64,000 bases of DNA from Patescibacteria group bacterium (GTDB lineage: Bacteria; Patescibacteriota; Patescibacteriia; UBA2591; JAQUPP01), in NCBI GenBank assembly GCA_041649955.1, contig JBAZMD010000001.1:68079-132078 (forward strand), in the 5' to 3' direction. Made by a program: the position numbers and the translations under genes. The notes beneath the pieces were generated by a model. The model made no database searches. It saw nothing but the letters and a program-made list of their open reading frames with translations, and was not told the DNA's origin. Of this stretch, positions 7,407 to 46,868 are shown one piece after another (within the stretch, counting starts at the first letter, position 1; each line of letters opens with the position of its first letter).

Positions 7407-7429
7407 AAAAAATACTTTTTATTACTGTT

Positions 7430-7930: not shown

Positions 7931-7938
7931 AAATTACA

Positions 7939-8742: not shown

Positions 8743-8759
8743 ATTGATTATTTAAAGAT

Positions 8760-10340: not shown

Positions 10341-10351
10341 AGTAAAATTAT

Positions 10352-10951: not shown

Positions 10952-10986
10952 AATAAATTATATTTTATAAATTTATAAAAATTCTA

Positions 10987-25376: not shown

Positions 25377-26237
25377 CTATTTTTGTTCTTCTTGCTTCCT
25401 AGATTGTACAATTATAGCTTTTTCTACTAGTTCAATATCATTAGGAAGTTTCTTCGCTTCAAAGTCGCCATTATTATCTTGTGAACTAATTTTTTCATAA
25501 AGTAACTTTAATCTATTTTGTTTTTCATCAGTAAGATTCCAACCTTTTTTGAAATCTTCCGTAGATAAAGGGATGTCATATCTGTATAAAATTTCGTTTT
25601 TAATAAAACCGGCATTTTTTAATAATTCTAATAAGGCTTGTTCATCTGTGATAAATTTTTCAACTGCTACTTTTTCTGCAATAATCTTTTCCCTTTCTGT
25701 ATAAAGATAATTAGTCATTTGATTATTTCGAACGGCCGGTGAAACTAAAGCGGATAAAATAAGCTTGCCATCATTTTTTAAAACCCTATTCACTTCTGAT
25801 AGAGCTTTTATCTGTAAGGGTTTTGGAAGATAATCTAAAACCTGTTTTATGGTAATTATGTCGACTGATTTATCATTCAGGGGAATGTCAATAATATCCC
25901 CTGGAAGTTTATCATAACCCTTTTTATCAGGAATCTCATTAAGCATGTCTAGATTCCTGTCAATAAAAATTGTTTTAATGTTAATTCCTTTGTCTTTTAA
26001 TTTCTTCTCAAATTCTTTATTAAAAAAATCCCCGCATATTCCGGGACCGCAACCAATATCAGCTAAAATAATTTCTTTTTTCTTAGCTATTTCTTCAAGA
26101 TCTAAACCGCGAAACATATTCTCTAATACGTCTTCTCTGGCCTGATAACCACGCAAGGATTCTCTATAATTTTTTATCCTCCAAGTATCTCTTGAAACAA
26201 TGTCGCCAGTTGAAACTCCTTTTTCAATATTTGTCAT
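25377..26237 (-). CDS. Class I SAM-dependent methyltransferase
   Basis: 286 aa. Motif I ILADIGCGPGICG, then FIDRN and DIITIKQVLDYL. Confidence 0.8.
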   Translation of the reverse strand: MTNIEKGVSTGDIVSRDTWRIKNYRESLRGYQAREDVLENMFRGLDLEEIAKKKEIILADIGCGPGICGDFFNKEFEKKLKDKGINIKTIFIDRNLDMLNEIPDKKGYDKLPGDIIDIPLNDKSVDIITIKQVLDYLPKPLQIKALSEVNRVLKNDGKLILSALVSPAVRNNQMTNYLYTEREKIIAEKVAVEKFITDEQALLELLKNAGFIKNEILYRYDIPLSTEDFKKGWNLTDEKQNRLKLLYEKISSQDNNGDFEAKKLPNDIELVEKAIIVQSRKQEEQK

Positions 26238-27196: not shown

Positions 27197-28054
27197 CTAC
27201 TTTTTAATCTTTAAAATATAAATTGGCATAAATTCCGTATAAGTCCAACGAGGAGCTTCTACAATTGCTTTAATGGCAAAATATTTTTTAAGCATATTCT
27301 CAAATTCTTTTTTAAAAAAAGTAATATGAATGATTTTACCACCGTGTTTCTCTATATTGTGTATTTTCCAAACATCTTCTTTTCTAAGTTTTATTTCCCC
27401 TTTTTCCAAGGCAGGATTAAAAAGATCAAACATTTTTTTCACAGACCATTCTTTCGTTTTTTCGTTGTATATTTTTTTCTTCCATTTTGTATAGTATCCT
27501 AGGGCAAACCAAAACATAAGCCAAGTGGTTTTTTTCTGATTATATTGTTTTTGAAAATAAGAAAAATTTTCTTGCGGTTTCTCCGGCAAATAAATAAAAT
27601 TGCGCGTAATAAAATATCCATCGGGTTTTAAAAGTTTGTTGATGTTTTTTAATAATTCAGGATGAAGTTTAACCGGTATATTATTAAGAGAAGCATCAGC
27701 AAGTACTGCGTCAAAACAATGCTCCGGCAAAAATTGTACCATTTTTAACCAATCGCATCTCATCATTAAATTCTTATCATCGTCTCTAAATTTCATTGTT
27801 TGATACATTGATTCAATGACATTAAAACTTATATCAATTGCTAAAGTTTCGCAGCCCAAACCAATGGCCATGTCTCTTAATTCCGGCGTAGCGCCCAAAA
27901 CTAAAACACGCGGATCCTTTTTTCCCTTAATGGCTAATTTCAAATATTTTTTATAAATATCTAATTCTTCTTTTATCGGCGCTGAAGACCCTTCCCGCTT
28001 AGCGCGGGAAGAAGCTACTTTTTTTATATCCCAACGTGACAATATTGTTTTCAT
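27197..28054 (-). CDS. SAM-dependent methyltransferase, paralog family LG.TPE.RD (copy 1 of 3)
   Basis: 285 aa. Motifs VLVLGATPELRD, AIDIS, VLADASLNNIP, LLKPDGYFITR and tail KKYFAIKAI. Clearly homologous to ORFs 38786 and 39646. Confidence 0.75.
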   Translation of the reverse strand: MKTILSRWDIKKVASSRAKREGSSAPIKEELDIYKKYLKLAIKGKKDPRVLVLGATPELRDMAIGLGCETLAIDISFNVIESMYQTMKFRDDDKNLMMRCDWLKMVQFLPEHCFDAVLADASLNNIPVKLHPELLKNINKLLKPDGYFITRNFIYLPEKPQENFSYFQKQYNQKKTTWLMFWFALGYYTKWKKKIYNEKTKEWSVKKMFDLFNPALEKGEIKLRKEDVWKIHNIEKHGGKIIHITFFKKEFENMLKKYFAIKAIVEAPRWTYTEFMPIYILKIKK

Positions 28055-30881: not shown

Positions 30882-33800
30882 TTATTTCGCGGCTAAGAAT
30901 TTCGGCGTGACTAAATTCTCGGCAAAATCTGAAATTGTTCCGCCGTCAGAATAAGTTTCAGCCTTAGAAATAGTCATTACCGGCACTTTGCTGTAACCAT
31001 TGTTGGTTAAAGCTTTGGCGGATAATTTATATTTCTTGCCGTTCTGAATCAGATAAATCTGAGAAGTTCCCGTGTATTTAACCAATGTTCCATTAGGATG
31101 TTTAGTCGTGGAATCAATCGTATCGCCTAAAGGATAATTGAATTTGGATAATAAATCATCAGGCACCCAAGTCACCAATTTCCATTTCGGATCATTGAAA
31201 AGTTTCTGATAAATCGCTGAAGATTTAACCGGTCTCAATTTGCCGTCAGAAACCATGAATACTGCCGAAGCGCTTAAACCGTGAAGCGATGTAGTCTTGC
31301 CTCTGAATAATGAACCGTCGCGGAATGTCATTGCTACGCCTTCAGAATATTTCGCAAATTCTTCAGAAGTAACCTTCTTGACTGTTGAGAAATTGGATGG
31401 ATAACCCCAAGAGAGATAAACATTAAGATGCGGGAAAACGTGCGCCTTGCCGTCCAAAATCATATAAACCGCGCCTGGTTGAGCAGTACAAGTCGGACAA
31501 ATAACCAAATCTCTATTTTTGAGATTATAAGTTATAACTTCTGCTGTTTCTTCTGATTCAGAAATAATTATTGCTGAAATTATTGAAGAGAGATTAAAAG
31601 TCTTATCTCTGAAACGGATATAAACCACTTTTTCTCCCTTACCAACTGGTAGTAACCAAGAACGAGTAGCTTGATACGGTTCCCAATTAATACCGACAAA
31701 ATCAATCGTATTACTAATCATCATTTCCGCGGCATCAGTAGCAGTAATGTTTAAAGTAACATTTCTGGAAGTAGTTTTCGCGGCACCACTATTTATCTTT
31801 AAGGATAAATCTTTTGGACCAAGATTACCTGCATTGCCACCACCTCCTGAACTGCCACTCATTGGGGTCGAATCTCCGCCAGCAGTAACAAACTTTCCTC
31901 CGGTAATACCGCCAGGTGTAAAATGGTTTGTGGTAACAATTATAACATTATTAGTTGCATCGCGAACCACTGATTTATAATTTTCCCAAGTGTTTGTGGT
32001 GTCATCAAAATATTTTGGCGTAATATCAGCTTCAGTATATCCATAATCTGTAATTAAATCCGGATCATAAGGGAATGTAATCTTTACGTCATTATCAAAT
32101 TGAGTGATTTCTTGACCAGTAGAGTCCTTAGCCGTGAAATCATAGTTAACGCCAAGCGGTTTATCTTTAGCATCCGGTTTCACTGATACCGTAGTTTGAT
32201 TTTCATCACCAACAGTCGGCGTAATAGTTACGGTAACTGTGCCACTGCTGGCTAAAGCTCCGGCTGGAATTTCAAGCGTCAGACCATTTGTAAGTTCAAT
32301 AGTTTTACTGTCTGAAGCGTTGAAAGTCGTAGTTTTAGCTTCAGGAACGGCAAGACCTGTGGTAACAAGAGTTAAATTCTTAGTTTGAGCGCCTGCTACG
32401 GTTATAACTTCAGTCGCAGCGCTTTCATAAAGGACTCCATCAATTTTGGCCGTGGCCTTAACATACCATGTTTCACCGGACTTAACTTTTAAAGTATAAG
32501 TTCCGTCAGAAGCCATTGTACCGGTTCCCTTATCCTCAGACCAAGCTTGTATCATTGCTTGTTTTCTAACGCTGTCTAAAGTAACCTCACCGGTGATAGT
32601 GGCATCTGATAAACTGAATTGAAGATCCTTACCTGTTACATTGGAATCGCCAACCGTCACACTGAGTAATGGCGGGTTAATCAAATCTCTCGCATCCCAA
32701 GGAGGAATACCGGCACCAATTTTGAAAGTACCACTGGTAACATTTAAAGTATAAGTGCCGTCATTTCCGGTAAAAGTACCAACACCCAAACCGCCCGGAC
32801 CCTTAAAATCATTTTTGGTCGTTTCATCACCAAAGTCAGCATAGACCCAAACTCCACTCATACCAACATCATCCGGATCCGTGATTGTACCGCTGATTGT
32901 TTTATCAAGTTTTTTAAGTTGGAAATTACGAGTAGTTGTACTATCGGCAATAACGGTTGATTTTACGTCTTCGGCTACTATTTTGTATTTATCATTATCA
33001 TCTCCAAAATTCATCATCGGATCAATAAAAGCGTCAACGTACCAACTGCCTGCTGAAACTTTTAATGAATATTTATCATTAACACTGCTTGGAGCAAATT
33101 CTGTTTGCGACCAGCCGCCATTTTCTTTATCACCATTGATAAAAGCGCGAACTCCTGTCACAACCGTATCTGTTCCTGCAGTATAAGAACTATCGCTATT
33201 AGTATCAAGATAAAATTTACCTTCAATCGTAGCATTATTCGGTGCCACCACTAAATCAATTTCTTTACATCCGGTTGTTTCGTCAGTACAAGTATCGCTT
33301 TCACCAACAGTAACAGTTTTAGTTACGGTTAAAGTATATTTAGAACCCGGAGGCGTATTTAAACCTAATTCATAACTGCCGAGCGGAACTTTAATTTCAG
33401 TATAACCATTAGCTAATCCTCCGCCGGCAAAACCACCTTTATCCATACCTGCTCCCATTGCTCCGCCGCCACCGCTGCCGCCACCTACAGCTGTTCCACC
33501 ACTACCTGCATCGCCGCTTCCACCTGCCATCATTTTCGGATCACCGAAATCAATAAAATCATTTACTGTCGGATCCGTATCTTTAACCCAAACTCCACCC
33601 CAAATATCGGAAACACGATTACCGTCAGCATCCACTACATTTACTTTAAGCAGACCATCGGCTACCTTTAATAAAAAGTCATTATTATCAGAAGTTTGAT
33701 TGGCGGTTATTGTTACTTGTTGCGGACCACCTTGATAAATATATTGAGTTGACATTGGCATAATCATTACGCCCCAATTTCCTTCACTGACAGTTAAATC

Positions 33801-36800
33801 AAATCTGCCGGTATTAGAATCTGTTTGTGTATTAGCCCAGCCCGGTCCATTCATTTGCCAAGCATTAACCATCACACTGCCAATTGCATTACCGGCCGAA
33901 TCTGTAACCGTTCCTTTAATATGAGCATTCTTTGCTGTTAAAATAAGTGTGCCTGCGTCAGTTGTTTGTTCAGAAATAGCTTTGATTTTAACCGGAGTGG
34001 AACCGCCATAACTCTGACCTTGTTCGCCCCAGTTTGGATTAGCCACCAAATCATAAGTACCAGCTGGAACTTTAAAAGTAAAACGTCCATCAGAATCAGT
34101 ATTGGCACCATTGCCACCACCCATCATACCGCCGCTATTGGCCATTACCCAAGAATTGGCAATTGCCGTAGCACCGGTTGGATCTTTAACTAAACCTGTA
34201 ATAATAGCATTGGCCACTTGAACTTCAAAATCCAAACCAGCATCAAGTATAGTAGCGCCTCCCGGACAATTTCCCACTGTACCGCGGCATTCCGTGCTGC
34301 CATCTTCGGTAAAAGTAGTTCTCTTTGGAGATTCATTATAAACCCAATCAGGTTGACCCATGCTCCAATCAGGATTTACACTTAACCACCAGCCGCCGCC
34401 GGCAAGTTTTAAAGTATATTCACCACTTGAATTTGTTAATGTTTCAAAATGTCCACCTCCCATATCGCGATTAGCTTGAACGCGGGCATTAGCGACTAAT
34501 GCACCGCTGCCCTTTTTAGTCACTGTACCGGTTAAAGTTTTTGTTGGGACAGTTAAGGTAATTAAATTATTTGCCTGAGCCACATTGGCCACTTTAACTG
34601 TGCCTACGTCATCAGCAACATCAACGGTTAATCCGCTTGGTTGAATCCAAGCTTTTTCACCGCCCCAAGGCAAATTGATTTCCATGGATAATCCGGTGGC
34701 ATTGGTTAAACCGCCGATTCGGAAATAACCTTGATCATCAGTTGAAGCACCACCCTGATTTTGCCACATTTGATCATGAATCATAATCCAAGACCATTGG
34801 ACAGGTTGATCATCCGCAGTTCCGGCAACTTCATCCGCACCCGGATTCATTACTCTTCCGGTAACTTGCGGCGTACCAAGTATGAGTTTACCGCCGGTTC
34901 CATAAGTCACACCTAAATCTAAATTAGAAGTTCCGGCAGCTACGGCAGAGGAAATTGTAATATTAGAATATTTTTTTGTTGAATAATTACGATAAACAGC
35001 TTGTTCTTCAGGCGTCCCCCAACGTGGAGCTTCAATTTCTAAAGCATAAGTTCCTGCTGTCACACCACCAAAAGAGAATTGACCGTTCTGATTAGTGTTT
35101 GTGCCATACCAACCACCCGTAGTACCGCCTTGCATTGGTCCTTCAATATGGAAATTAATCCAAGCATTAGCCACAGTTGTAGTAGTATTTGGAATAACAA
35201 CCGTACCGCTAATATTCGGAGTGCTTAAAATTATATTTTTGGTTCTGCTTGATTGAGAACTGGTAACTGTAACATTCTGAACAAGTTTTCTCCCGCAAGT
35301 AATATTTCCGCAACCATTCCAAGGATTTGCTTCCACTTCATAAGTACCAATAGTCACACCGCCAATGGCATAATTTCCATTAGCATCTGTTTGTGACCAT
35401 TGAGAACCGGACATTGAACCTTGTGATCGCATATTAATACCAACATTAGTTGCACCGATATCAGGATAACCCACCGGATCATCGCATTCAGCTTGAGTCA
35501 CAGTTGAATTGTCGTCATGTTTCGGTTTGCAAACACGACCGGTTAAACCATTAACTGTCGGGTCGCTTAACAAAACAAGTAAACTATTATTAGCAATTGT
35601 CAAAGCAGTACCCGGATCTGATACCTCGGTAATAGTAGTTCCGGCAACACTTACTACCATGCCTTGCGGCGCAGCATAAAGACTGCCGTATTGAGTATTG
35701 ACATTAAAATTCCAGCTGCCCGTAGGAACATTTAAACTAAATGTTCCATCACTTTGAGCACTGGCGCCATAACAACTACCGGCTGATTGATAAGGACAAA
35801 AATCAATCCAAATTCCGCTTTGTCCGGTTGTACCGGTTGGATCTTTAACTACACCAGTAACATTGGGTGCTGATAAAGTAAATGCGTCATCATCAACGCT
35901 ATCAAGAGTGTCAGCTTGATCTTTTAAATCATTAGAAGTAGTTGAAGTAATGGAAACTGAAAAATTACCGCTGGCACAAGCACTGCCGCTCGCCGGTTGA
36001 ATTCGAAGATTATAAGTACCAAGTGCCACGCCACCAAGAGAAAAATTACCACTATCATCAGTATTTACACCATACCAAGAACCATCTTTATCCATATTTA
36101 TCCAAGCGACGGTTGTTACACCACCGCATTTTACTTTTCCAAAAACATTTGGCAAAGCAAAAGTTTTATTTCCCAAATCAGTAATTTGTCCATCCGTAAC
36201 ATCAATGGCAAATTCAGCAGTTCTTGTTCTTGGATAACTTCTAAAGTCGCCGCTGTATGGCGGCTCAATTTCTAAAATATAATGAGTACTGTCTGTCACT
36301 CCGCCAAAATAAACTATGCCATCAGCATCGGTCTGTGCCCATTGATTGTAAGACCAATCCATAGTATGAAGACCAATATTGGCATAAGGCACTGGCAAAC
36401 CAGGCTGAGGATTACTTGCCGTAGCAGTATCACCTAAAGTACCAGGAGCCTTAATCGTTACTTTAACATTTTGAGCGGATAAATTGATATTAATGCCGGT
36501 TGCAGTTTGACCTGAAGTTAAACATTGAGAAGTTCTAACGCTTTTATATTGTAAAACTCTGTCTTGATAATCTTTGGGTCTGGCTTCAATTTCATAACAT
36601 TGGCTGCTGGTATCATTTGGAACATAAAGTTTCCATGTTCCGTTTGGACCGGTTGTTGTTCTTTGCTCATAGTCCCAAGTATAAGGACGAGCAACCACTT
36701 CTACGCCTTCCAATAATGTTGCGCCACTGGGAGATTTAACCGTACCGGAAAGAGTGGCTGTTCTAAAAGCTTGGGTGGCTAGTGTTGCCACTGAACCCAC

Positions 36801-37808
36801 CGTAGCTGTTTGACTGCTTAACTTGGAGGGCGCCACATAAGTCGCGCCGGCCGGGGTGCTGAATTGTATATTATAACTTCCGGTCGCACTTAATAATAAA
36901 GCATATTTGCCATTGGAATGAGTTTCCCCAAGCACGACATTTCCCATTTGTCCGGGCGTAAAAGATTCAACCTGGACTCTATCTATGTCACCGGCCGTAT
37001 CTGAGGTAAGACTACCTATAAATATGCCTTGCGTGCTATTCCAAATTATAAATGGTCGTGAATCTGAAACACGACGCGTATTCAAATCACTAATTATTAT
37101 ATCTACGCGGCCGTTTAATCCGGTTGGAATTGTAGCCGTAAGTTCAGTAGCTCCGGCAGTTGCAGGCGTGGATGTTACACTTCCTCCGTTAAAATTCCAA
37201 TATATTTCTGTTGCGTCAGTTGAGGTGGAATAATTAGAACCGGTAATCGTTACTGTATCGCCGACATTGCCGCACGGATAACCATTGCAAAGATCAGACT
37301 CAGTAGTATTGGTTATATAATTGATAATCGGATCAATAGAAGCGCTAACAGTATTGTTGGCAGTAAAATCTTCTATAGTTTGAGTTCCTGCTAAATTTTT
37401 AATATCTCCGGCTGTCATCTGCCAAGTTTGTCCTTCGCTTAATTTTAAATTTTTTAAACCGTAAATTCTTAAACGATAATCATTCTCGCCCGCCTGAATA
37501 CTTTGAGTTGACATATCATAAGGACTGAATCGACTTAATGTTCTGTCTGTTAATCCCGCTCCTGTTTCAAAAATAAAATTACGCAAATCTGTCGCGTAAT
37601 TGGTTGCACTTCCTGCTTCGGTTGTTGAAGATGGGGTTGTTTCTGCGGAAAATTGTCCGTTGAATGTAATTTCCGCTGAAGTTGTCGAGACCGTAATATC
37701 GGTCACGGCTATTGGTGCTAATGCACTCACTGATGTGGACAGCCCCATTGACCACAACATGGTCGTGGCTGTCACAAAAATTGAAAAAAACTTTTTTGTG
37801 TTGTTCAT
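30882..37808 (-). CDS. Giant (2308 aa) secreted surface protein made of a dozen or more prealbumin/CarboxypepD_reg-like beta-sandwich repeats, Gly-rich linkers and three C-terminal ~55-65-aa modules
   Basis: Signal peptide MNNTKKFFSIFVTATTMLWSMGLSTSVSALA. Recurrent units such as ITGLVKDPTGATAIANSWVMA...TDSDGRFTFKVPAGTYDLVANP. Gly tracts (GGSGGGGAMGAG, SGSSGGGGNAG). C-terminus HPNGTLVKYTGTSQIYLIQNGKKYKLS... Confidence 0.85.
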   Translation of the reverse strand: MNNTKKFFSIFVTATTMLWSMGLSTSVSALAPIAVTDITVSTTSAEITFNGQFSAETTPSSTTEAGSATNYATDLRNFIFETGAGLTDRTLSRFSPYDMSTQSIQAGENDYRLRIYGLKNLKLSEGQTWQMTAGDIKNLAGTQTIEDFTANNTVSASIDPIINYITNTTESDLCNGYPCGNVGDTVTITGSNYSTSTDATEIYWNFNGGSVTSTPATAGATELTATIPTGLNGRVDIIISDLNTRRVSDSRPFIIWNSTQGIFIGSLTSDTAGDIDRVQVESFTPGQMGNVVLGETHSNGKYALLLSATGSYNIQFSTPAGATYVAPSKLSSQTATVGSVATLATQAFRTATLSGTVKSPSGATLLEGVEVVARPYTWDYEQRTTTGPNGTWKLYVPNDTSSQCYEIEARPKDYQDRVLQYKSVRTSQCLTSGQTATGININLSAQNVKVTIKAPGTLGDTATASNPQPGLPVPYANIGLHTMDWSYNQWAQTDADGIVYFGGVTDSTHYILEIEPPYSGDFRSYPRTRTAEFAIDVTDGQITDLGNKTFALPNVFGKVKCGGVTTVAWINMDKDGSWYGVNTDDSGNFSLGGVALGTYNLRIQPASGSACASGNFSVSITSTTSNDLKDQADTLDSVDDDAFTLSAPNVTGVVKDPTGTTGQSGIWIDFCPYQSAGSCYGASAQSDGTFSLNVPTGSWNFNVNTQYGSLYAAPQGMVVSVAGTTITEVSDPGTALTIANNSLLVLLSDPTVNGLTGRVCKPKHDDNSTVTQAECDDPVGYPDIGATNVGINMRSQGSMSGSQWSQTDANGNYAIGGVTIGTYEVEANPWNGCGNITCGRKLVQNVTVTSSQSSRTKNIILSTPNISGTVVIPNTTTTVANAWINFHIEGPMQGGTTGGWYGTNTNQNGQFSFGGVTAGTYALEIEAPRWGTPEEQAVYRNYSTKKYSNITISSAVAAGTSNLDLGVTYGTGGKLILGTPQVTGRVMNPGADEVAGTADDQPVQWSWIMIHDQMWQNQGGASTDDQGYFRIGGLTNATGLSMEINLPWGGEKAWIQPSGLTVDVADDVGTVKVANVAQANNLITLTVPTKTLTGTVTKKGSGALVANARVQANRDMGGGHFETLTNSSGEYTLKLAGGGWWLSVNPDWSMGQPDWVYNESPKRTTFTEDGSTECRGTVGNCPGGATILDAGLDFEVQVANAIITGLVKDPTGATAIANSWVMANSGGMMGGGNGANTDSDGRFTFKVPAGTYDLVANPNWGEQGQSYGGSTPVKIKAISEQTTDAGTLILTAKNAHIKGTVTDSAGNAIGSVMVNAWQMNGPGWANTQTDSNTGRFDLTVSEGNWGVMIMPMSTQYIYQGGPQQVTITANQTSDNNDFLLKVADGLLKVNVVDADGNRVSDIWGGVWVKDTDPTVNDFIDFGDPKMMAGGSGDAGSGGTAVGGGSGGGGAMGAGMDKGGFAGGGLANGYTEIKVPLGSYELGLNTPPGSKYTLTVTKTVTVGESDTCTDETTGCKEIDLVVAPNNATIEGKFYLDTNSDSSYTAGTDTVVTGVRAFINGDKENGGWSQTEFAPSSVNDKYSLKVSAGSWYVDAFIDPMMNFGDDNDKYKIVAEDVKSTVIADSTTTRNFQLKKLDKTISGTITDPDDVGMSGVWVYADFGDETTKNDFKGPGGLGVGTFTGNDGTYTLNVTSGTFKIGAGIPPWDARDLINPPLLSVTVGDSNVTGKDLQFSLSDATITGEVTLDSVRKQAMIQAWSEDKGTGTMASDGTYTLKVKSGETWYVKATAKIDGVLYESAATEVITVAGAQTKNLTLVTTGLAVPEAKTTTFNASDSKTIELTNGLTLEIPAGALASSGTVTVTITPTVGDENQTTVSVKPDAKDKPLGVNYDFTAKDSTGQEITQFDNDVKITFPYDPDLITDYGYTEADITPKYFDDTTNTWENYKSVVRDATNNVIIVTTNHFTPGGITGGKFVTAGGDSTPMSGSSGGGGNAGNLGPKDLSLKINSGAAKTTSRNVTLNITATDAAEMMISNTIDFVGINWEPYQATRSWLLPVGKGEKVVYIRFRDKTFNLSSIISAIIISESEETAEVITYNLKNRDLVICPTCTAQPGAVYMILDGKAHVFPHLNVYLSWGYPSNFSTVKKVTSEEFAKYSEGVAMTFRDGSLFRGKTTSLHGLSASAVFMVSDGKLRPVKSSAIYQKLFNDPKWKLVTWVPDDLLSKFNYPLGDTIDSTTKHPNGTLVKYTGTSQIYLIQNGKKYKLSAKALTNNGYSKVPVMTISKAETYSDGGTISDFAENLVTPKFLAAK

Positions 37809-38554: not shown

Positions 38555-38588
38555 AGGTCCTGCAAGAAATTGCAGGCCTTTGATTTTT
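38555..38588 (+). terminator. Intrinsic terminator after the AsnC-type mini-gene
   Basis: aggtcctgcaa-gaaa-ttgcaggcct, followed by ttgattttt. Confidence 0.7.
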
Positions 38589-38612
38589 AATCCTTCATCC
38601 CTCCACGCTTGT

Positions 38613-38781
38613 GGCGAAATTCGCCTGAACGATGTCGCGGAAAAACCTTAGAAAATTAAGGAGTTTTATTGAAAAACTCATCTGTTTGACGACCTATTTG
38701 GGAGGAGTTATGAATTTTTCAGAATAAAACGAATATAATTTTCAAGGATTTAGAGCGTTGAGTGAAGGTGAATTTTGCAAC
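38613..38781. repeat. Intergenic repeat family A, copy 2 (abuts the methyltransferase stop)
   Basis: See copy 1. Starts with the palindrome ggcgaaattcgcc. Confidence 0.8.
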
Positions 38782-38785
38782 ACTT

Positions 38786-39640
38786 TTATTTTTTTCTTAA
38801 TTGATAAATGGTGTAGAATTTGGAAAAAGCGGGATGTTTAACCGGCTCTTTTATTTTTTTAACAATCGTAAAATATTTTTTAACCAGCCGGTCAAACATT
38901 TTTTCCGGCAGCATAGTAACGCGATGCGGCTGATTGTAAAAATCAAAAGTCATTAAATCATATTCTTTTTGAGTGATTTCTTTGTTTTTTAATTTCTCGC
39001 CTAAAAACAGATTAAATTTGTTCATCTCGGTAGTGTATTCTTTCTTGTTGTAAAATCGCGGATCTGAATAAGCGCAGCTTTCCCAAATATAAATTTTATT
39101 ATTCAATGATTTGAAATAATTCGGCTGGCGCTTGCATTTTTCAATCACGCTTTCCGCGGTCTGCAATATCGGACTCGCGTTGGTAACGGTAATAATCAAT
39201 TCTCCTCCCGGTTTCAGAATAGTTTTCATTGCCTTAAAAAATTGTTCGTACAACTCAAGATTGACCAAATTATTGGTTACGGCATGGCCGATAATGCAAT
39301 CAAATGTTTTGGGAAGAAAATATTTTGTCGCTTCTGTCCAAAGACCGTTGGTTATTTTTTCTTTGCTTTCTATTTTTTTTAAACCGTTCATTGTTTCAAC
39401 CATATTTTGGCTGAATTCCAAAAGCGTGACCTTAAATTTCATTTTTGCCAGACAATCCCGAATGGCCGGCGTACAGCCTAAAACCAAGGCCTTATTGCCT
39501 GATTTCTTTTTAATGATTTTTAAAATTTTAGCGCAAGCGGCAATATGCTTTTTTGAAGGCACAAAAGGCGGCGGAATTTTGGCATAGGTTTGAGTATACC
39601 CTTCTTGCCACACTTTTTTATTTATTGCTTCTTTTTCCAT
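38786..39640 (-). CDS. SAM-dependent methyltransferase, paralog family LG.TPE.RD (copy 2 of 3)
   Basis: Motifs ALVLGCTPAIRD, LLEFS, ILKPGGELIITV and tail KKYFTIVKKI. The start is set at ATG 39640, 5 nt after the upstream stop. The ORF-track start at 39673 would overlap the upstream gene by 28 nt. Confidence 0.7.
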   Translation of the reverse strand: MEKEAINKKVWQEGYTQTYAKIPPPFVPSKKHIAACAKILKIIKKKSGNKALVLGCTPAIRDCLAKMKFKVTLLEFSQNMVETMNGLKKIESKEKITNGLWTEATKYFLPKTFDCIIGHAVTNNLVNLELYEQFFKAMKTILKPGGELIITVTNASPILQTAESVIEKCKRQPNYFKSLNNKIYIWESCAYSDPRFYNKKEYTTEMNKFNLFLGEKLKNKEITQKEYDLMTFDFYNQPHRVTMLPEKMFDRLVKKYFTIVKKIKEPVKHPAFSKFYTIYQLRKK

Positions 39641-39645
39641 GTTAG

Positions 39646-40479
39646 TTATTTTTTTAAAAAATAAATTGGGCATTGGTGAACAAAAGGATGATCTGTACCG
39701 TATTTAACGGCAGAAATCTTGAAATATTTTTTCATCATTTTCTCCCCTTCTTTTTCCGGCAGAGTCCACCAAGTTTTGCCCAACGGCCATTGTTGATGAA
39801 AAATCTTAATCAATTTGGCTATTTGCTTTTTTCTGGCCGCGTTCTTTTCATCTTGCCAAGATTTTTTAAGCGCTGAACTGATGCCGTCCGTACTCGTACT
39901 ACTGTCTTTTGCTTTCCAAACAACAAATAATCCGCCATAAGCAAATTCACTGATACTTTCTTGATTAAATTTTTTCTTAATCACGAGATTAATAAATTCT
40001 TGAATTGATTTTTTGGGAAAAATAGGAAAAAGATGGCGGGTAATAAAACAACCGCCCGGCTTTAAAACCTCTCTGATTTTAGCCAAAAATTTCGGCTGTA
40101 ATTTAATCGGAATATTACAAATAACAAAATCTCCCAGAACAAAATCATAATAATTTTGAGCCACGGGCATAGTCAGCCAGCCGGCCTTAATCCAAGTTTC
40201 CTTGTCTGCATTTTTTTGATATTTCACCCATTTGGTCATAGCCATTAGCATATCCAAACTAATATCAACGCAAGTCACTTCTGCTTTTTGGCGATGCACC
40301 AAGTCGCGAAATTCGGGCGTTCCGCCTAAAATCAAAATTTTAGCCGGTTTTTTATGTTGAGCAATGAATTTTTCTATAATCTGGCATTCGCTTTTTGACG
40401 GCCGGTTGGGCGGAGTATAAACTTGCCATTGATGTGCCATTTTTTGCGCGTGATAATAAGCTACTTTTGGTTCTGCCAT
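39646..40479 (-). CDS. SAM-dependent methyltransferase, paralog family LG.TPE.RD (copy 3 of 3)
   Basis: 277 aa. Motifs ILILGGTPEFRD, CVDIS, VLKPGGCFITR and tail KKYFKISAV. Confidence 0.75.
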   Translation of the reverse strand: MAEPKVAYYHAQKMAHQWQVYTPPNRPSKSECQIIEKFIAQHKKPAKILILGGTPEFRDLVHRQKAEVTCVDISLDMLMAMTKWVKYQKNADKETWIKAGWLTMPVAQNYYDFVLGDFVICNIPIKLQPKFLAKIREVLKPGGCFITRHLFPIFPKKSIQEFINLVIKKKFNQESISEFAYGGLFVVWKAKDSSTSTDGISSALKKSWQDEKNAARKKQIAKLIKIFHQQWPLGKTWWTLPEKEGEKMMKKYFKISAVKYGTDHPFVHQCPIYFLKK

Positions 40480-40669: not shown

Positions 40670-41506
40670 TTAATTATATTTTTGAAGAATAAAATAAAAA
40701 TATTTTCTTTTTCCATTTTTAAATGAATTGCATAACTCTGAATCTTTAACTCCCGCGAATTGCTTGCCGAGATTTTGCAAAAATTTCGGCAAAAATTGCC
40801 TAACAAGTTTCATCCTTCTTTCATTATCCAAATTCAATGCCCTAAAAACATTTTCCGTTATATCTTCTTTTTTTATTATTTTCAATTTTGATTTATTAAT
40901 GGAGTCAAAAAAAGATTGAATTAATTCCCGGCTTCTGAAATCGGCGAATAAAAAATATCCTTTAGGTTTTAATATTCTTTTCGCTTCCTGTAAAAATTTA
41001 TTAAAATTAGGGTAAGAATGAGAAGATTCTATGTTTATCGCCGCGTCAAAACTTTCATCTTCAAAAGGAATTTTTATGGCGTTTCCGTATTCAAATTTTA
41101 AATTTTTTTCATAATGATGCTCTCTGTCAAATTTTATTTCTGCTTTGGAATTATCTATGCCGACGATCAGTTTGGGCTTGAAATATCTGGCAATGAAAGA
41201 AGTTCCGCCGCCCTTCCCGCATCCTACTTCTAAAACTTTTTTATCTTTTATATTAATAGAACTCACTACCTTATGATACAACTGGGCGCAATATCTGTTT
41301 TCTTCATCAATTTTTTCCAATCTTAATTTTTCCCGGTATTGATATCCGTAATTCAAAAAAATCACCTCTCCTTTTGAATCAATTTTTGAAAGATGATTAT
41401 ACCACTTATTCACCACTAAAGACTGGCCCTTAAGATAAATCTTGTTGACTAAATTAAAAAAATTTAATATCTTTATTAATTTTTTAATCCAATCTTTCTT
41501 CGTCAT
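40670..41506 (-). CDS. Class I SAM-dependent methyltransferase (Methyltransf_11-like)
   Basis: 278 aa. Motif I VLEVGCGKGGGTSFIA, then VGIDNS, FDAAINIESSHSY and ILKPKGYFLFADF. Confidence 0.8.
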   Translation of the reverse strand: MTKKDWIKKLIKILNFFNLVNKIYLKGQSLVVNKWYNHLSKIDSKGEVIFLNYGYQYREKLRLEKIDEENRYCAQLYHKVVSSINIKDKKVLEVGCGKGGGTSFIARYFKPKLIVGIDNSKAEIKFDREHHYEKNLKFEYGNAIKIPFEDESFDAAINIESSHSYPNFNKFLQEAKRILKPKGYFLFADFRSRELIQSFFDSINKSKLKIIKKEDITENVFRALNLDNERRMKLVRQFLPKFLQNLGKQFAGVKDSELCNSFKNGKRKYFYFILQKYN

Positions 41507-41513: not shown

Positions 41514-42962
41514 TTATTTTCGCCCTCTTTTAATTATTATAACCTTCCCGTGTGTTGCGTCAACTTCTATCAAATCACCGTCTTTCAAAACCTTAGTGGC
41601 GATTTTGGTGCCGATAATACACGGCTTTCCCATTTCACGGGCAATGATAGCCGCATGACAAGTTAATCCGCCATCATTTGTAATTATTGCTTTAGTTTTT
41701 GAAATTGCCCCCATAAAATCTGGAGTTGTCATAAAAGTAACAAGAATTTCTCCTTTTTTCATTTTAGATATTTCGGCCGCATTTCTGATAATTCTAACTC
41801 TACCCTTAACATAACCGGCCGAGGCTGACACACCTTTAATAATCCGTATTAAAGAATCTTTAACAATTTTATTCTTGGGTATAAAAATTTTTATTTTTCC
41901 TTTATGTAATCTTATAAAATAATTATTGTTTCTTTTTTTAAGCTCGGGGGTGGAAATTAAAAGTTTTCCAATTTTTAAACTGGCAATTAATTCATCTGAA
42001 GTCAAATTAGTTAAATCAGTATAATCAACAGAAAGTCGCTTGCCAACTTCTGAAAAAAAGAATCTCATTAAGTATTCCGAGTTTTCTATGAAAGAAAGCA
42101 TTTCTGTTCTATAAAAAGACAGATTAGCTAAATCTTTAAATAATTTTTTTGTAATTTTATCAATTGCATATTTTTTATATAATGCCTTCTTGTCAGAAGC
42201 TAAATCAATTTTCATTTTGGGATAATTTTTTTTCTTTAGAGCAATTTTTATTTCCTCAATGGTGTCTATAATTGTAGGGTATTTATCAGTAGTAAAAAAG
42301 ACACAACCCATTCTCACATATTTTTGATGAAATTTATTTATTATTTTTTTTAGTCTTTTGGGGGAATTATCAATTATTTCATTCAATTTTCTATTAAACA
42401 ATTTTTGGTATTTCGCTCTTCTGATAAAATTAACGATTTTTTGCAAATCATCCTGCTTTTTTTCGATATAATTTTTTCTAGAGGACTGCATTAATATCCC
42501 AAATTCTTCATCTTCTTGTTTTTTATTAACAACTGATAGCAAATTTTTAGTAAGTGCATCAATGCTAAAATTTCCTGTATACACATAACCTATAAAACGC
42601 GCATAATAATCTGTCCAAGCTGTAAATAATTTTATCAATTTTCTATTTGAATACTTCTCTATTTTATAGGAGCTGACCTTTTTACTGAATTTATATAATT
42701 TCCTTCCATATTTTTTGTATTCAGCAAAAAGTTTTTTTAATTTACCATTTTTAATATTCTTCAATATTTCATGATGCGCAACCTCTATATCTTCTAACCC
42801 AAAATAAGCTTGAGCTTTAATCTGACTATTTATATATTTATAATCTTGGATTATCCTGCTATGCAAGGGTGTTTTAGAAACATAACCCGCTAAGGCGTAT
42901 TTAGTGGCTATATATCTGGGAAGCAGAGGTAGGGCCTTTTGTGTTGTAGCTATCCATTTCAT
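41514..42962 (-). CDS. Unknown ~370-aa N-domain fused to a C-terminal PEP-utilizer mobile (swivel phospho-His) domain, paralog C
   Basis: 482 aa. C-terminus GEILVTFMTTPDF...GGLTCHAAIIAREMGKPCIIGT...DGDLIEVDATHG. Confidence 0.8.
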   Translation of the reverse strand: MKWIATTQKALPLLPRYIATKYALAGYVSKTPLHSRIIQDYKYINSQIKAQAYFGLEDIEVAHHEILKNIKNGKLKKLFAEYKKYGRKLYKFSKKVSSYKIEKYSNRKLIKLFTAWTDYYARFIGYVYTGNFSIDALTKNLLSVVNKKQEDEEFGILMQSSRKNYIEKKQDDLQKIVNFIRRAKYQKLFNRKLNEIIDNSPKRLKKIINKFHQKYVRMGCVFFTTDKYPTIIDTIEEIKIALKKKNYPKMKIDLASDKKALYKKYAIDKITKKLFKDLANLSFYRTEMLSFIENSEYLMRFFFSEVGKRLSVDYTDLTNLTSDELIASLKIGKLLISTPELKKRNNNYFIRLHKGKIKIFIPKNKIVKDSLIRIIKGVSASAGYVKGRVRIIRNAAEISKMKKGEILVTFMTTPDFMGAISKTKAIITNDGGLTCHAAIIAREMGKPCIIGTKIATKVLKDGDLIEVDATHGKVIIIKRGRK

Positions 42963-42980
42963 AATTTAATTTTAAATTAT

Positions 42981-43925
42981 TTACAAAGTCGTAATCGGCC
43001 TACTTTGTACGATATAGAACTTTTTATTTTCCAAAGCCCACTCAATATCGCAGGGAAATTTATAATGTTTTTCAATTTGAGCGCACAATTTAGCCAATTC
43101 AATAATTTGTTTGTTGTTGAATTTTTGTTTAGCACGCAATTTATTCGGCACTTTTACCCATTCGCTGCCAATGCCTGATTTTTTCTGAACAATCATTTTT
43201 TCTTGCTCTGAAATATTAATATCAATAATTTTCCATGTTTTTTTATTAATCACATAACTGTCAGGCGTAATATGTCCGCCGACAATCGCCTCTCCCAAAC
43301 CCCAACCGGCTTCAATAATCAGCTGGTTTTTATCTTTTGTAACAGGATGAGTGGTAAAACAAATGCCTGAAATTTCCGATTGAATCATTTTCTGAATTAC
43401 CACGGCCACGGAAACTTTTGATTTTCTCATTCCTTGTTCCCGGCGATAAACAATTGCTCTTTGAGTAAAAAGCGAAGACCAGCAATCTTTAACTCGACCT
43501 AATAAATTCTGCCGAGTTGTATTGAGATAACTTTCCAGTTCTCCGGCCCATGAAGCGACTGACGAATCTTCGGCTGTCGCGCTGCTCCGAACCGCCACAT
43601 GTTTTGCTTTTAATTTATCAAAATCAATTAAAATTTCTTGCTGTAAATCTTTAGGCATTTTTGCGTCATGAATTAAATCGCGAATTAATTTTGATGCCTG
43701 ATCAACCGAATTAACATCTTTATAATTCACTTTATTTAAAGCCGATTCAATTTCAACATCTATATCAGTTTCTGTTAAAAATCTTTCAAAGGCATCAGCC
43801 AAAACCACAAATCCCGGCGGCACTTGAATTCCCGCTTGTGTCATTTCTCCCAACGACGCCCCCTTGCCTCCGGCAATTCCAACATCTTTTTTTGATAATT
43901 GTTTAAAATTTTTAGTAAATTTCAT
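42981..43925 (-). CDS. Stand-alone PPDK_N / PpsA-type ATP-grasp nucleotide-binding domain protein
   Basis: 314 aa. Motifs GGKGASLGEM, VAVRSSATAEDSSVASWAGE and DIEWALENKKFYIVQSRPITTL. It has no swivel domain and no PEP/pyruvate domain. Confidence 0.85.
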   Translation of the reverse strand: MKFTKNFKQLSKKDVGIAGGKGASLGEMTQAGIQVPPGFVVLADAFERFLTETDIDVEIESALNKVNYKDVNSVDQASKLIRDLIHDAKMPKDLQQEILIDFDKLKAKHVAVRSSATAEDSSVASWAGELESYLNTTRQNLLGRVKDCWSSLFTQRAIVYRREQGMRKSKVSVAVVIQKMIQSEISGICFTTHPVTKDKNQLIIEAGWGLGEAIVGGHITPDSYVINKKTWKIIDINISEQEKMIVQKKSGIGSEWVKVPNKLRAKQKFNNKQIIELAKLCAQIEKHYKFPCDIEWALENKKFYIVQSRPITTL

Positions 43926-43945
43926 ATATTTTTATTTTAATTTAT

Positions 43946-45397
43946 TTATTTATTTTTTAAAATTTTGACTAATCCATGATTTGCATTAACTTCCACCAAA
44001 TCACCGTCTTTCAAAACCTTAGTGGCAATTTTGGTGCCAACCAAGCACGGAATCCCTAATTCCCTTGAAACAATAGCCGCGTGGCAAGTTAATCCTCCTT
44101 CGTCGGTAATAACCGCCCCTGCTTTTTTTATTGCCACAATAAATTCAGGCGAAGTCATTGGGGCAACCAAAATTTCACCTTGCTTCATTTTATTTAGATT
44201 ACGGGGTGTTAATAATATTCTGACTCTTCCCTGAATTTTACCGCAACCGGCGCTGACAACCATACCATTTATTATCCCAGATTCTCTATTGACTTCCTTT
44301 TTCAAGAAAGGCCTGATTAAATTTATCTGTTTTTTCCCGCTCTTGAGAGTCAAAACATTTTTATAATAATGAATTAAGGCAAATTTTTTTCTATTTGCTA
44401 TTTCTTTAGAAGATACTTTTGCGCCATTTTTTAATAATTTGATAATTTCATTCGGCCAATAAAACATTAAATCGGAAAAATTAATTTTTTTTCTTCTGGA
44501 AATCTCTTTCAAGAATAAATCAACATAATGATTGGCGATAAAAATTTCTTTTTTCCTCGTATCCTGCCACCAGATTGAAGCCGAAAGCCTTTTAACTGTC
44601 TTAATGGTTTTTGCGTTAAGTTTATATTTTCTGAATAATTGATTTTTTTGAAAAATTATTTTTCTCGGCAAATTTTTGATTTCCTTTATTTTTTGATTAA
44701 CTTGCCTGATGCCTGATAATATTTTTTTAAAATACTCCGCTTTCAATTGTTTTTGTTCAAAATAACTGTTTCTAATCCAAAAATATCGTCGGATATGTTT
44801 TTCAATCAATTGATCAAATTTTTTTGTTCCCTGATATTTTTTTATTTCCAATAAATCCAATTCTTCTTTTTGATAAAAAGAAAGATTTTCCGGAGCGGCT
44901 AATTTTTCAAGGGCTGAAATAAATTCTTTTTGGTTGTCAATTTGCTTGGATAATTCTTCTTTTAAAATTTCTTCACCGCCCAAATTGGCAAGTTCCGGAA
45001 CTAATCCCACTCCCCAAAAATTTATATACAAATTGTGCCATTTATTGTAAGTATCGGCGAAGGCCTTATCAGTCAATAAACCGAGAGATTTTTCTGAAAT
45101 TTTCGTCTGGAAATTTTTTAATTTATTCAAGGCTTTTTTATAATCAGCTTGAACTTTTTTAAAATTTAAATCATTCAAAATCCATGTATTAAAATGTTTT
45201 CTTCCGGCTGTCCTGACATTTTTTTCATCGGAAATAAAAGTCATTTTATCTTTTGTAAAATAAAACAAAATCTCGGGCCAGTGATATTTGTAATAACGGG
45301 GCAAGTTCGTGGCAATCCCTATCATAAAATAGGATATATAAATCATTCTCCCGTCAATCGGTCCCCAAATCCAAAGTTTTTTTTGTGAATTAATCAT
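43946..45397 (-). CDS. Unknown ~370-aa N-domain fused to a C-terminal PEP-utilizer mobile (swivel phospho-His) domain, paralog B
   Basis: 483 aa. C-terminus GEILVAPMTSPEF...GGLTCHAAIVSRELGIPCLVGT...DGDLVEVNANHG. Confidence 0.8.
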   Translation of the reverse strand: MINSQKKLWIWGPIDGRMIYISYFMIGIATNLPRYYKYHWPEILFYFTKDKMTFISDEKNVRTAGRKHFNTWILNDLNFKKVQADYKKALNKLKNFQTKISEKSLGLLTDKAFADTYNKWHNLYINFWGVGLVPELANLGGEEILKEELSKQIDNQKEFISALEKLAAPENLSFYQKEELDLLEIKKYQGTKKFDQLIEKHIRRYFWIRNSYFEQKQLKAEYFKKILSGIRQVNQKIKEIKNLPRKIIFQKNQLFRKYKLNAKTIKTVKRLSASIWWQDTRKKEIFIANHYVDLFLKEISRRKKINFSDLMFYWPNEIIKLLKNGAKVSSKEIANRKKFALIHYYKNVLTLKSGKKQINLIRPFLKKEVNRESGIINGMVVSAGCGKIQGRVRILLTPRNLNKMKQGEILVAPMTSPEFIVAIKKAGAVITDEGGLTCHAAIVSRELGIPCLVGTKIATKVLKDGDLVEVNANHGLVKILKNK

Positions 45398-46868
45398 TGT
45401 TTAAATGTTTTAAAATTTTAACAATTCCCCTGTTCGCATCCACCTCCACCAAATCCCCGTTACGTAATGTCCCTGTTAAACCGTGAATTCCTACTATACA
45501 AGGTGTTTTCAACTCTCGCGAAACAATGGCCGCATGAGAAGTGATACCACCCCTTTCGGTTAAAATCGCTTTTGCTTGCTTCATAAGAAAGATATAATCC
45601 GGCGTAGTGTGGGAGGCAACCAATATAGCTCCCTTTTTAAATTTAGAAAAATCTCTTTCTGATTTTATAATTAAAACTTGGCCGATAACGTTTCCAGGAT
45701 AAACGGCTGCCCCGCAAAGAACCTTTTTCTTTTCTTGGCGCAATAAAATTGATCTTATTTTCAGAGCTGACTCACCTTCTAATAATGAGTAATCTTTATC
45801 AATCCCCAAAAAGATAATGGTGGATTTTTGTCTTTTTTTAATAAGATTTAAAAAATTATTTTTATTTTTTAAATTTATCTGCAACTGCTCTTCCCAAGTT
45901 AACCATCTGAATTTTTCGTAATCCAGCGCATAATTTTTTGCCACTCTTTTAAGCCAAGTCTTAATGGGTATTGTTGTTTGTAAATTAAAAGCTTTTCTTT
46001 GGTCTCTTAATTTATACAGAATATCAAGAAAATTAATCAATTTTTTAATATTTTCAGGTTTTGTTTTTAAAATTTTTCTCTTCTTTTTTCTTTGTTTTTC
46101 CGAACATTTTATTTTTTCCCACTCATTTTTAAAATTCTGTGCCAAATCTATACCATGTTCTATAAATAAAATTTCTTTTGGCAAAGCGTGCGACTTAAAA
46201 TTTAAAAATACCCAACCCCATTTTTGAGCGTGAAAAATAATTTTTTTACTTAAAATCTCATATTTTGCCAAATCTCGTACTCCGCTTTTTAGCTTTTTAA
46301 ATTCTTCAGACGGCAAACTTTTAATCAATTCTAATAAATTTTTATGTTCTTCCATTACAAAAGAGTCCTGTAAGGGCGTCATCAGCAACATTAATTCTTT
46401 CTCGTCTTTAATGGTTTCTTTGATTTTTATTTCCAAATATTTTTCAACAGCTTCACAGGTATTCATTAATAAAGCCATCCACTTCTGAATAACTTCTACA
46501 AAATTCGTATATATTTTTTTGTCTATCTTTGCTGATTTTTCTAATCTATCAAGAGCTTGCCAATTTTTTTTCGTCAGATTAATAAATTCTTTTTCTAATT
46601 GAATTGGATTATTCTTATATTTCAAATAAAATACCTGGCCCAATTTTAATAATGATTTTTTATCCAAACAATAATAAAAAGAATCTTTGTCATAAATTTG
46701 AATTAATTTAGCGCAGATTCCAAACATTTTTTTCTGAAGAGTACAGCTTCTCTTAAAACCCAAGTCCGTCCACCAAAAAAAATCAGCGTCATATTTGCCG
46801 ATTTCAAGATCGTCTTTTATCTTTTTTATTTTATTGATAAAGCTAGACACAAGTTTCTTTTCGGACAT
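45390..46868 (-). CDS. Unknown ~380-aa N-domain fused to a C-terminal PEP-utilizer mobile (swivel phospho-His) domain, paralog A
   Basis: 492 aa. C-terminus GAILVASHTTPDY...GGITSHAAIVSRELKTPCIVG...NGDLVEVDANRG. Overlaps the next gene by 8 nt. Confidence 0.8.
   Translation of the reverse strand: MSEKKLVSSFINKIKKIKDDLEIGKYDADFFWWTDLGFKRSCTLQKKMFGICAKLIQIYDKDSFYYCLDKKSLLKLGQVFYLKYKNNPIQLEKEFINLTKKNWQALDRLEKSAKIDKKIYTNFVEVIQKWMALLMNTCEAVEKYLEIKIKETIKDEKELMLLMTPLQDSFVMEEHKNLLELIKSLPSEEFKKLKSGVRDLAKYEILSKKIIFHAQKWGWVFLNFKSHALPKEILFIEHGIDLAQNFKNEWEKIKCSEKQRKKKRKILKTKPENIKKLINFLDILYKLRDQRKAFNLQTTIPIKTWLKRVAKNYALDYEKFRWLTWEEQLQINLKNKNNFLNLIKKRQKSTIIFLGIDKDYSLLEGESALKIRSILLRQEKKKVLCGAAVYPGNVIGQVLIIKSERDFSKFKKGAILVASHTTPDYIFLMKQAKAILTERGGITSHAAIVSRELKTPCIVGIHGLTGTLRNGDLVEVDANRGIVKILKHLNND

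Follow-up and report, generated by a model that had tools for sequence, protein, structure and literature searches.

Rifampin phosphotransferase (RPH) is a single-chain enzyme with three modules, an ATP-grasp domain, a domain with the rifampin (RIF)-binding fold and a C-terminal swivel domain which carries a histidine. The PRK06241/YvkC-type proteins have the same three modules. Two-component homologues of RPH have been characterised: PpsAB, CreHI and HpeHI convert ATP to AMP and inorganic phosphate (Pi) via a phosphohistidine, so a split RPH-like dikinase architecture is not new (PMC12167813). In these enzymes no stable complex is formed, mutation of the histidine abolishes activity and HpeH alone catalyses phosphotransfer between substrates (PMC12167813); this precedent makes it mechanistically plausible that several acceptors share one ATP-grasp protein. 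Here we analyse a 64,000-nucleotide stretch of a metagenome-assembled Patescibacteria genome (GCA_041649955.1, contig JBAZMD010000001.1, positions 68,079 to 132,078; hereafter the window). It contains four compact genes, all on the minus strand and in the order A-B-G-C, where G encodes an ATP-grasp protein and A, B and C encode acceptors. We think it probable that they form a hub-and-spoke version of the two-component RPH-type dikinase, in which one G serves A, B and C.

The product of G is matched in Pfam by PPDK_N (PF01326) alone (residues 17-313, E = 2.4e-101). Against the 864-position RPH model of NCBIfam it aligns over positions 4-313, which puts the cut exactly at the end of the ATP-grasp domain, and against the phosphoenolpyruvate (PEP) synthase model over positions 5-337. 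It also matches PDB chain 9goj_A (387 aa, deposited as 'phosphoenolpyruvate synthase') with an E-value of 2e-51. Residues K21 in GGKGA, R113 in RSSA and E295 in DIEWA are, by their position, the likely equivalents of K22, R117 and E297 of RPH.

The only Pfam domain in the acceptors is the swivel domain (PF00391), found at residues 410-481 of A (E = 8.7e-26), 405-475 of B (E = 1e-25) and 402-472 of C (E = 1.4e-24). The swivel histidine lies in a GGITSH motif in A (His445) and in GGLTCH motifs in B (His439) and C (His436). The first ~370 residues of A, B and C have no significant Pfam match. In NCBIfam the C-termini align to models of PEP synthase, RPH, PigC/RedH, pyruvate kinase and Enzyme I of the phosphotransferase system (PTS) over their swivel segment, and all scores of the swivels and of G are far under the family cut-offs. 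PTS Enzyme I joins its swivel to an HPr-binding subdomain and a PEP-binding C-terminal domain, and the alignments to Enzyme I models and structures cover the swivel only (~80-105 residues). The unnamed PRK08296 models (~570-630 positions, with a C-terminal swivel) likewise match the acceptors over the swivel only and far below their cut-offs. The models of PigC and RedH have matches in G and in the swivels that do not reach into the N-terminal domain. The prodiginine ligases PigC/RedH/HapC and the L-glutamine kinase Cj1418 are built from the same ATP-grasp and swivel modules but are single-chain; their example shows the fold to be capable of activating non-hydroxyl groups and of serving biosynthesis.

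PEP synthase is the closest relative by sequence for the ATP-grasp domain as well as the swivel: G scores 354.9 bits against PRK06464, and the swivels, with their GGxT[CS]H motif, have E-values of 1e-31 to 1e-35. NCBI names these proteins 'PEP-utilizing enzyme' and 'PEP/pyruvate-binding domain-containing protein'. Unlike PEP synthase and PPDK, however, the locus has a C-terminal rather than a central swivel, its N-terminal domains are helical, and the PEP/pyruvate TIM barrel (PF02896) is present in none of the four proteins nor in any window open reading frame (ORF) of at least 250 aa. The lack of a TIM barrel and the C-terminal swivel make public 'pyruvate, water dikinase' labels misleading. 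A PEP synthase in pieces was rejected as an explanation, there being no TIM barrel.

These results bear out a first-pass annotation of the window, which had described an ATP-grasp-only gene of 314 aa, three proteins ending in a swivel with the phospho-carrier histidine, an RPH architecture cut right after the ATP-grasp domain, and no PEP synthase or PPDK. The profile searches that it proposed find PF01326 only in G, PF00391 only in A, B and C, and PF02896 in none of them. ORF calling also returns exactly the spacing that it gave for the four adjacent genes, an 8-nt overlap between A and B and gaps of 20 nt between B and G and 18 nt between G and C.

The N-terminal domains (N-domains) of the acceptors are related to one another. 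Those of B and C are 23% identical (E = 2e-9). The N-domain of A gives marginal pairwise matches to the others (E = 0.016), A aligns with other family members over ~450 residues, and its model has the same fold as the model of B. Orthologues of C (P0002 and P0003) are 39-46% identical to it. The AlphaFold2 model of B, made with a 108-sequence alignment, has a mean predicted local distance difference test (pLDDT) score of 94.8 and a predicted template modelling (pTM) score of 0.91; the pLDDT of the A model is 83.5. In both models the part ahead of the swivel is mostly helical and includes a pair of small beta-hairpin elements. The closest solved structure to the acceptors by fold is RPH, and the published model of HpeH behaved likewise in fold comparison (PMC12167813).

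The models thus indicate that the N-domains are homologues of the RIF-binding domain, and neither TIM barrels nor a new fold. For the whole N-domain this homology rests on fold comparison, with sequence profiles reaching RPH only partway. An N-domain profile finds no match among PDB sequences even at an E-value of 10. A full-length profile reaches RPH only from profile position 306, which is RPH residue 699, and no N-domain sequence match in NCBIfam or the PDB goes past the last ~150 residues. The first-pass annotation had assigned each acceptor a different N-domain without a known motif. The second part stands, as Pfam gives no significant match, while the first does not, given the relationship between B and C and the shared fold of A. 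The structure prediction and comparison with RPH which it suggested gave helical, RIF-binding-domain-like models of A and B with no TIM barrel.

The N-domains contain conserved polar motifs, WQDxRK and a nearly invariant arginine. At the first of these positions B has WQDTRK (residues 277-282), A has RDQRK and C has YRTE. The motif lies ~25-30 residues ahead of the stretch whose alignment to RPH starts at residue 699. In RPH the phosphotransfer residues Arg666, Glu667 and Lys670 are on an apex helix (PMC4844700), and from its place in the alignment WQDxRK may be near or equivalent to this site.

The ratio of ATP-grasp genes to acceptors was determined in a census of 84 non-redundant loci, in which ORFs were called and scored with our own N-domain and swivel hidden Markov models and with G as query. 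The census is biased to B-like sequences, since the scan patterns came from a B-centred alignment, and many loci are on partial contigs. No locus has more than one ATP-grasp gene: 35 carry one, and in the other 49, many of which are on partial contigs, there is none. The window itself has one G, three acceptors and no other PPDK_N. Elsewhere a single G accompanies ten acceptor genes (L014), eight (L017 and L012) or five (L006, a woesearchaeote), and L023 has at least nine acceptors. Recognised N-domain units number 1-9 per locus, except in L067, which has swivel units only. The histidine is retained in all 277 swivel domains of the census. The first-pass annotation had proposed a survey of Patescibacteria for the layout of one plus three; a one-to-many layout is indeed widespread, but three is not a special number, the range being 1 to ~10 acceptors.

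The 120 best relatives of G all contain PF01326 only, they are 311-357 aa long and 64-100% identical to G, whereas for B the best relatives mostly have 40-50% identity. Higher conservation of G would fit a subunit obliged to match many partners.

In some relatives the two halves are joined in a single protein. P0033 (1794 aa) and P0067 (1836 aa) consist of one PPDK_N domain followed by three units of N-domain and swivel; G is 61% identical to the ATP-grasp domain at the N-terminus of P0067. L087 encodes an ATP-grasp domain followed by two N-domain-swivel units, and L058 and P0141 have one ATP-grasp domain, one N-domain and one swivel, i.e. the RPH domain order. The 1994-aa proteins of L040 (247-6231) and L082 (6920-12904) carry one ATP-grasp domain and three or four swivel units, and a 3761-aa ORF in L054 (6266-17551) carries one ATP-grasp domain and eight. 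Each extra swivel unit is preceded by ~240-370 residues, and no fusion with an ATP-grasp domain has a second one. The first-pass suggestion that one kinase module may charge several acceptors therefore has strong comparative backing, short of in-silico proof, in these fusions and in the ceiling of one ATP-grasp gene across the 84 loci.

We propose the following mechanism, which takes its chemistry by homology from RPH, PpsAB and HpeHI. G would hold ATP in its ATP-grasp cleft, and the C-terminal swivel of A, B or C would dock onto it. The acceptor histidine would attack the beta-phosphate of ATP, AMP and Pi would leave and phosphohistidine would remain. The swivel would then return to its own RIF-binding-domain-like N-domain and hand the phosphate to the bound substrate, most likely to a hydroxyl or similar nucleophile of a small molecule. 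A single G would charge all three acceptors. A, B and C come from anciently diverged subfamilies, so they would most likely have different substrates, and the methyltransferases encoded downstream may work on these molecules too. The proposal starts from observed domain identities and folds, retention of the histidine, the one-to-many ratio, the fusions, and the age and turnover of the paralogs; we infer that G is shared and that the substrates are small molecules which differ between acceptors.

Several observations weigh against this proposal. In 49 of the 84 loci no G is seen in the available sequence, so G need not adjoin the acceptors, and some genomes might encode extra ATP-grasp partners elsewhere. 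C lacks the WQDxRK motif kept by most members. Threonine, as in PEP synthase, occupies the position two residues before the histidine (His-2) in 206 of 270 swivels, where RPH and HpeH have methionine (PMC12167813), and regulation or partner choice may therefore differ from that of the known two-component enzymes. Accessory genes near the arrays define no single pathway, as each family occurs in only 4-6 of the 84 loci.

The closest described systems are HpeHI, CreHI and PpsAB, in which a separate ATP-grasp protein (HpeI, PpsB) is paired with an acceptor (HpeH, PpsA) formed by a RIF-binding-domain-like domain and a C-terminal swivel histidine, as G is with A, B and C. The window system differs from these two-component enzymes in five ways: the one-to-many ratio, smaller acceptors, PEP-synthase-like swivels, host range and gene context. 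The known enzymes are 1:1 pairs, while there are three acceptors per G here and 1 to ~10 in relatives. Their acceptors are ~71 kDa, have methionine at His-2 and share ~45% identity (PMC12167813), while those of the window have 482-492 aa and threonine at this position. The known pairs are found in aromatic-catabolism clusters of Actinobacteria and Proteobacteria; the window family is found beside methyltransferases in bacteria of the candidate phyla radiation (CPR) and in DPANN archaea. Single-chain RPH differs in that the window modules are in separate ORFs with their own starts and stops and the acceptor half is multiplied. The RPH N-domain has ~430 aa against ~370 aa in the window acceptors.

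The three acceptors are not local duplicates. Among acceptors of multi-acceptor loci, 130 of 136 have their best match in another locus, which shows that the paralogs are old subfamilies; a recent local triplication was rejected, as the paralogs predate the locus. The B subfamily is the best conserved, with at least 42% identity in nine loci, one copy in each, across CPR and DPANN (relatives are 42-47% identical).

A close relative of the locus, L088, comes from the same sample. Its flanks are ~88% identical to the window at the DNA level and B has a 91% identical orthologue, but L088 has at least seven acceptor genes against three in the window, with other cassettes in place of orthologues of the A and C N-domains. 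DNA homology between the window and L088 breaks at 45657, 44181 and 41684. In A, B and C these positions fall at residues 404-426, either where the swivel-coding segment starts or within it. Within the window, B and C share a 42-nt tract near their 3' ends which is identical at 41 of 42 nt and encodes GTKIATKVLKDGDL in both. Inside the tract 13 of 14 codons are identical, compared with 25 of 52 in the rest of the swivel region. In 5000 resamplings of synonymous codons none reached 42 nt and the maximum was 38 nt, so the tract exceeds what protein conservation and codon usage would produce. Near-identical tracts are also shared by paralogs within other loci (135 nt in L052, 95 nt in L023, 68 nt in L014), and all of them are at the swivel 3' end.

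From these sequence comparisons, the swivel-coding ends appear to be sites of gene conversion and unequal crossing-over, by which acceptor cassettes are added, removed and swapped; the breakpoints and the recurrent paralog tracts at swivel 3' ends together account for the 42-nt tract. The first-pass annotation had noticed this tract, with its one differing base, and had suggested gene conversion or constraint; the first of these explanations is strengthened by the resampling, the similar tracts elsewhere and the L088 breakpoints. Under our proposal B would be the conserved core member, and A and C would be strain-variable cassettes swapped by recombination in the swivel-coding 3' ends.

Gene context suggests another way of reading the locus. 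The acceptors and the methyltransferases could be one pathway for phosphate-derived and methyl decoration of a surface glycan or lipid, the paralogs being successive or alternative tailoring enzymes and their turnover being surface variation. A comparable route is known in Campylobacter jejuni, where O-methyl-phosphoramidate (MeOPN) synthesis uses a glutamine kinase of the RPH superfamily, a cytidylyltransferase and S-adenosylmethionine (SAM)-dependent methyltransferases, as outlined in a preprint (bioRxiv 10.1101/2024.11.05.622173, citing Taylor et al. 2017). In the window, L088 and L089 methyltransferase paralogs come right after the array (L089 has six of them after G), and members of the same family flank the arrays of L024, L053 and L068. 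Families which recur near the arrays, each in 4-6 of the 84 loci, are HD phosphohydrolase, small cytidylyltransferase-like, hexapeptide acyltransferase (acetyltransferase), His_Phos_1-like phosphatase, HAD phosphatase, MtxX-like, carbamoyltransferase-like and methyltransferase; they suggest small-molecule or envelope chemistry. Nucleoside diphosphate (NDP)-sugar enzymes are upstream in L004, and acceptor repertoires vary between close strains, as capsule and O-antigen loci do. However, no accessory family is found in more than ~7% of the sampled loci, no glycosyltransferase or transporter is consistently linked and the cytidylyltransferase here is of the small PF01467 type. We regard a single surface pathway as unlikely, and as it would use the same hub-and-spoke chemistry it bears on the substrates only.

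The acceptors could instead be a repertoire of RPH-like kinases that inactivate xenobiotics or antibiotics, each directed at a different compound of a host or competitor and all sharing the ATP module. RPH is the closest solved structure, rph-like matches in CPR genomes have been tallied as resistance genes (PMC8651080), the hosts live as epibionts, and gain, loss and swapping of cassettes among close strains is typical of arms-race functions. Yet the acceptors are only 16-17% identical to RPH and score 50-74 bits against its model (NF041857), which has an equivalog cut-off of 999 (G scores 285.6 bits). The identity of 42-47% of the B subfamily across CPR and DPANN, and its retention between strains, looks like the pattern of a core function. 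No resistance-type neighbours were seen, and in PADLOC no model matches the kinase parts, the methyltransferases matching only the generic methyltransferase region of mad2. We consider a resistance role distinctly improbable.

A third alternative is that the acceptors are phosphocarrier or regulatory proteins in a PTS-like relay from histidine to histidine, or, in a variant, that only one of them partners with G. Swivel domains are common to PTS Enzyme I, the RIF-binding domain has HPr-like and EIIA-like subdomains (PMC4844700), and some relatives have extra swivels, a receiver domain (P0021) or a weak, sub-cut-off HD match (P0099). Against a relay, each extra swivel has ~240-370 residues ahead of it and so looks like a complete unit, the N-domain keeps polar motifs (WQDxRK and the near-invariant arginine) as active sites do, and the characterised relatives of the same fold are all small-molecule kinases (PMC12167813, PMC4844700). 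We consider a relay very improbable. That the four ORFs are a single fused gene, frameshifted or misassembled, is scarcely credible and was rejected: fused forms are known in other loci and the 100% identical second assembly of the locus (L008) may derive from the same reads and so may not be independent, but the order A-B-G-C differs from the G-first order of fusions, each ORF runs its full length from an ATG to a stop of its own, stand-alone G (311-357 aa) and acceptors (~480 aa) dominate among thousands of relatives, and diverged relatives with G 96%, 85% and 82% identical retain a 314-aa G.

The hub-and-spoke proposal concerns a large family. A word-indexed search with the N-domain of C alone returned three proteins only, and it was an exhaustive profile search that exposed the family: the N-domain profile alone matched 2149 cluster representatives with E<=1e-3, 551 of them with E<=1e-10. 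The matches are mostly 470-510 aa long, with a minority containing two or three units. A profile search of 5.8 billion proteins gave more than 5800 matches at E<=1e-20, which is a lower bound. The CPR hosts are Buchanan-, Kuenen-, Uhr-, Falkow- and other bacteria of this radiation, and the DPANN hosts are Woesearchaeota, Nanoarchaeota, Ainarchaeum and further archaea. When one genome per species was scanned, the same CPR and DPANN groups gave at least 591 genomic matches. A scan of viral contigs gave one partial match, the system is cellular and the family is essentially missing from viral contigs. The names given to members are limited to 'PEP-utilizing enzyme', 'phosphohistidine swiveling domain-containing protein' and 'hypothetical'. 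Our literature searches for such arrays in CPR and DPANN found nothing specific, the nearest report being the CPR resistome survey that lists 'rph' matches (PMC8651080).

Should one ATP-grasp protein serve many acceptors, this would be the first one-to-many case in the superfamily of PEP synthase and RPH swivel kinases, and an economical route for ultra-small symbionts to carry out many phosphorylations with one ATP-binding module. Among ultra-small bacteria and archaea the layout is widespread and seems not to have been studied, and the family is centred on two radiations of 'microbial dark matter' without functional annotation. Public labels such as 'pyruvate, water dikinase' and 'PEP synthase' can lead metabolic reconstructions to wrong calls of gluconeogenesis and can yield spurious 'rph' resistance calls. 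The swapping of cassettes among near-identical strains identifies the acceptor genes as a rapidly evolving point of contact with environment or host. A wider claim, which we advance tentatively, is that this is an undescribed modular kinase system of CPR and DPANN: a conserved ATP-grasp charger with a strain-variable library of 1 to ~10 substrate-specific RPH-fold enzymes, diversified by cassette recombination at the swivel end. If so, minimal genomes could phosphorylate many scavenged or surface molecules with one ATP-binding module. The natural fusions, including the one with eight swivels, are ready-made constructs for biochemistry.

Table 1. Coordinates of the kinase genes, the neighbouring methyltransferase genes, the shared tract and the close relative. 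Positions are those of the window unless another source is given.
Feature	Position	Strand	Description
A, acceptor	45390-46868	(-)	492 aa; N-domain ~45729-46868; swivel 45426-45641; His445 codon 45534-45536
B, acceptor	43946-45397	(-)	483 aa; N-domain ~44267-45397; swivel 43973-44185; His439 codon 44081-44083
G, ATP-grasp (PPDK_N) subunit	42981-43925	(-)	314 aa; proposed ATP-binding 'charger'
C, acceptor	41514-42962	(-)	482 aa; N-domain ~41847-42962; swivel 41547-41759; His436 codon 41655-41657
MT1, SAM-dependent methyltransferase	40670-41506	(-)	278 aa; 7 nt past C; Pfam Methyltransf_31/11/25
MT2, methyltransferase	39646-40479	(-)	277 aa; Pfam match; family recurrent beside kinase arrays
MT3, methyltransferase	38786-39673	(-)	295 aa; Pfam match; MT2 paralog; 28-nt overlap with MT2
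42-nt tract in B	43997-44038	(-)	near-identical to 41571-41612
42-nt tract in C	41571-41612	(-)	partner of 43997-44038
L088, close relative	ENA ERZ27247363 k141_1232223, 1-12884		same sample as window; G 96% identical

Upstream of the kinase genes, a Gmad2/Germane gene ends 4 nt before A. Downstream, MT1 follows C. Its best matches are mycobacterial lipid O-methyltransferases, below cut-off; the top NCBIfam model is phthiotriol/phenolphthiotriol dimycocerosates methyltransferase (237.7 bits, under the cut-off of 300), and it also matches the fatty-acid O-methyltransferase Mtf2. MT1 is missing from L088 and is a possible, variable partner of the acceptors. MT2 has an 82% identical orthologue in L088, directly after the array, and MT3 a 94% identical one. 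A terminator-like hairpin is present on the minus strand at 38559-38576, after MT3. No Shine-Dalgarno motifs were found upstream of the starts, and promoter and terminator scans gave weak signals only; the spacing of the genes suggests an operon.

Two further SAM methyltransferase genes are present outside the cluster, at 27197-28054 and 25377-26237. The first of these is paralogous to MT2, with 31% identity across 267 aa.

A shorter class of acceptor was seen in other loci, interleaved with the ~480-aa class. These proteins have ~240 residues of unrecognised N-terminal sequence and a swivel, ~340-390 aa in total; examples are at 3417-4523 in L001, 1286-4439 in L050 and 8314-11700 in L085.

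The MtxX-like family (~276 aa) is unannotated and its genes are inside or beside arrays, at 11458-12300 in L009, 7151-7969 in L039 and 19306-20980 in L004. In L009 the gene sits between a B-type acceptor and G. Members score up to 94.8 bits, below the cut-off, against the methanogenesis marker Mmp4/MtxX (TIGR03270), and resemble PDB chain 9nzy_A, 'uncharacterized methyltransferase MTH_231'.

An intergenic repeat of ~170-180 nt is present in two copies in the window (38590-38790 and 3102-3267), which are 89-90% identical, and again in L088 (12177-12347). Both window copies fold as long imperfect hairpins, with minimum free energies of -48.7 and -54.8 kcal/mol and z-scores of -3.3 and -4.8. The repeat has no match in Rfam, it may be an element of the miniature inverted-repeat transposable element (MITE) or repetitive extragenic palindromic (REP) kind.

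The window is strongly biased in orientation. Of its 48 ORFs of at least 120 aa, 42 have minus-strand orientation; the remaining six are on the plus strand, five of them nested inside longer minus-strand ORFs. GC skew is negative across the 64 kb, in all 2-kb blocks but one. Two giant ORFs are present. The one at 10987-18165 (2392 aa) has a T4SS-pilin-like N-terminus as well as Big_5, Laminin_G_3 and CBM_4_9 domains, and the one at 30882-37808 (2308 aa) has CarboxypepD_reg repeats; both are probably large surface proteins.

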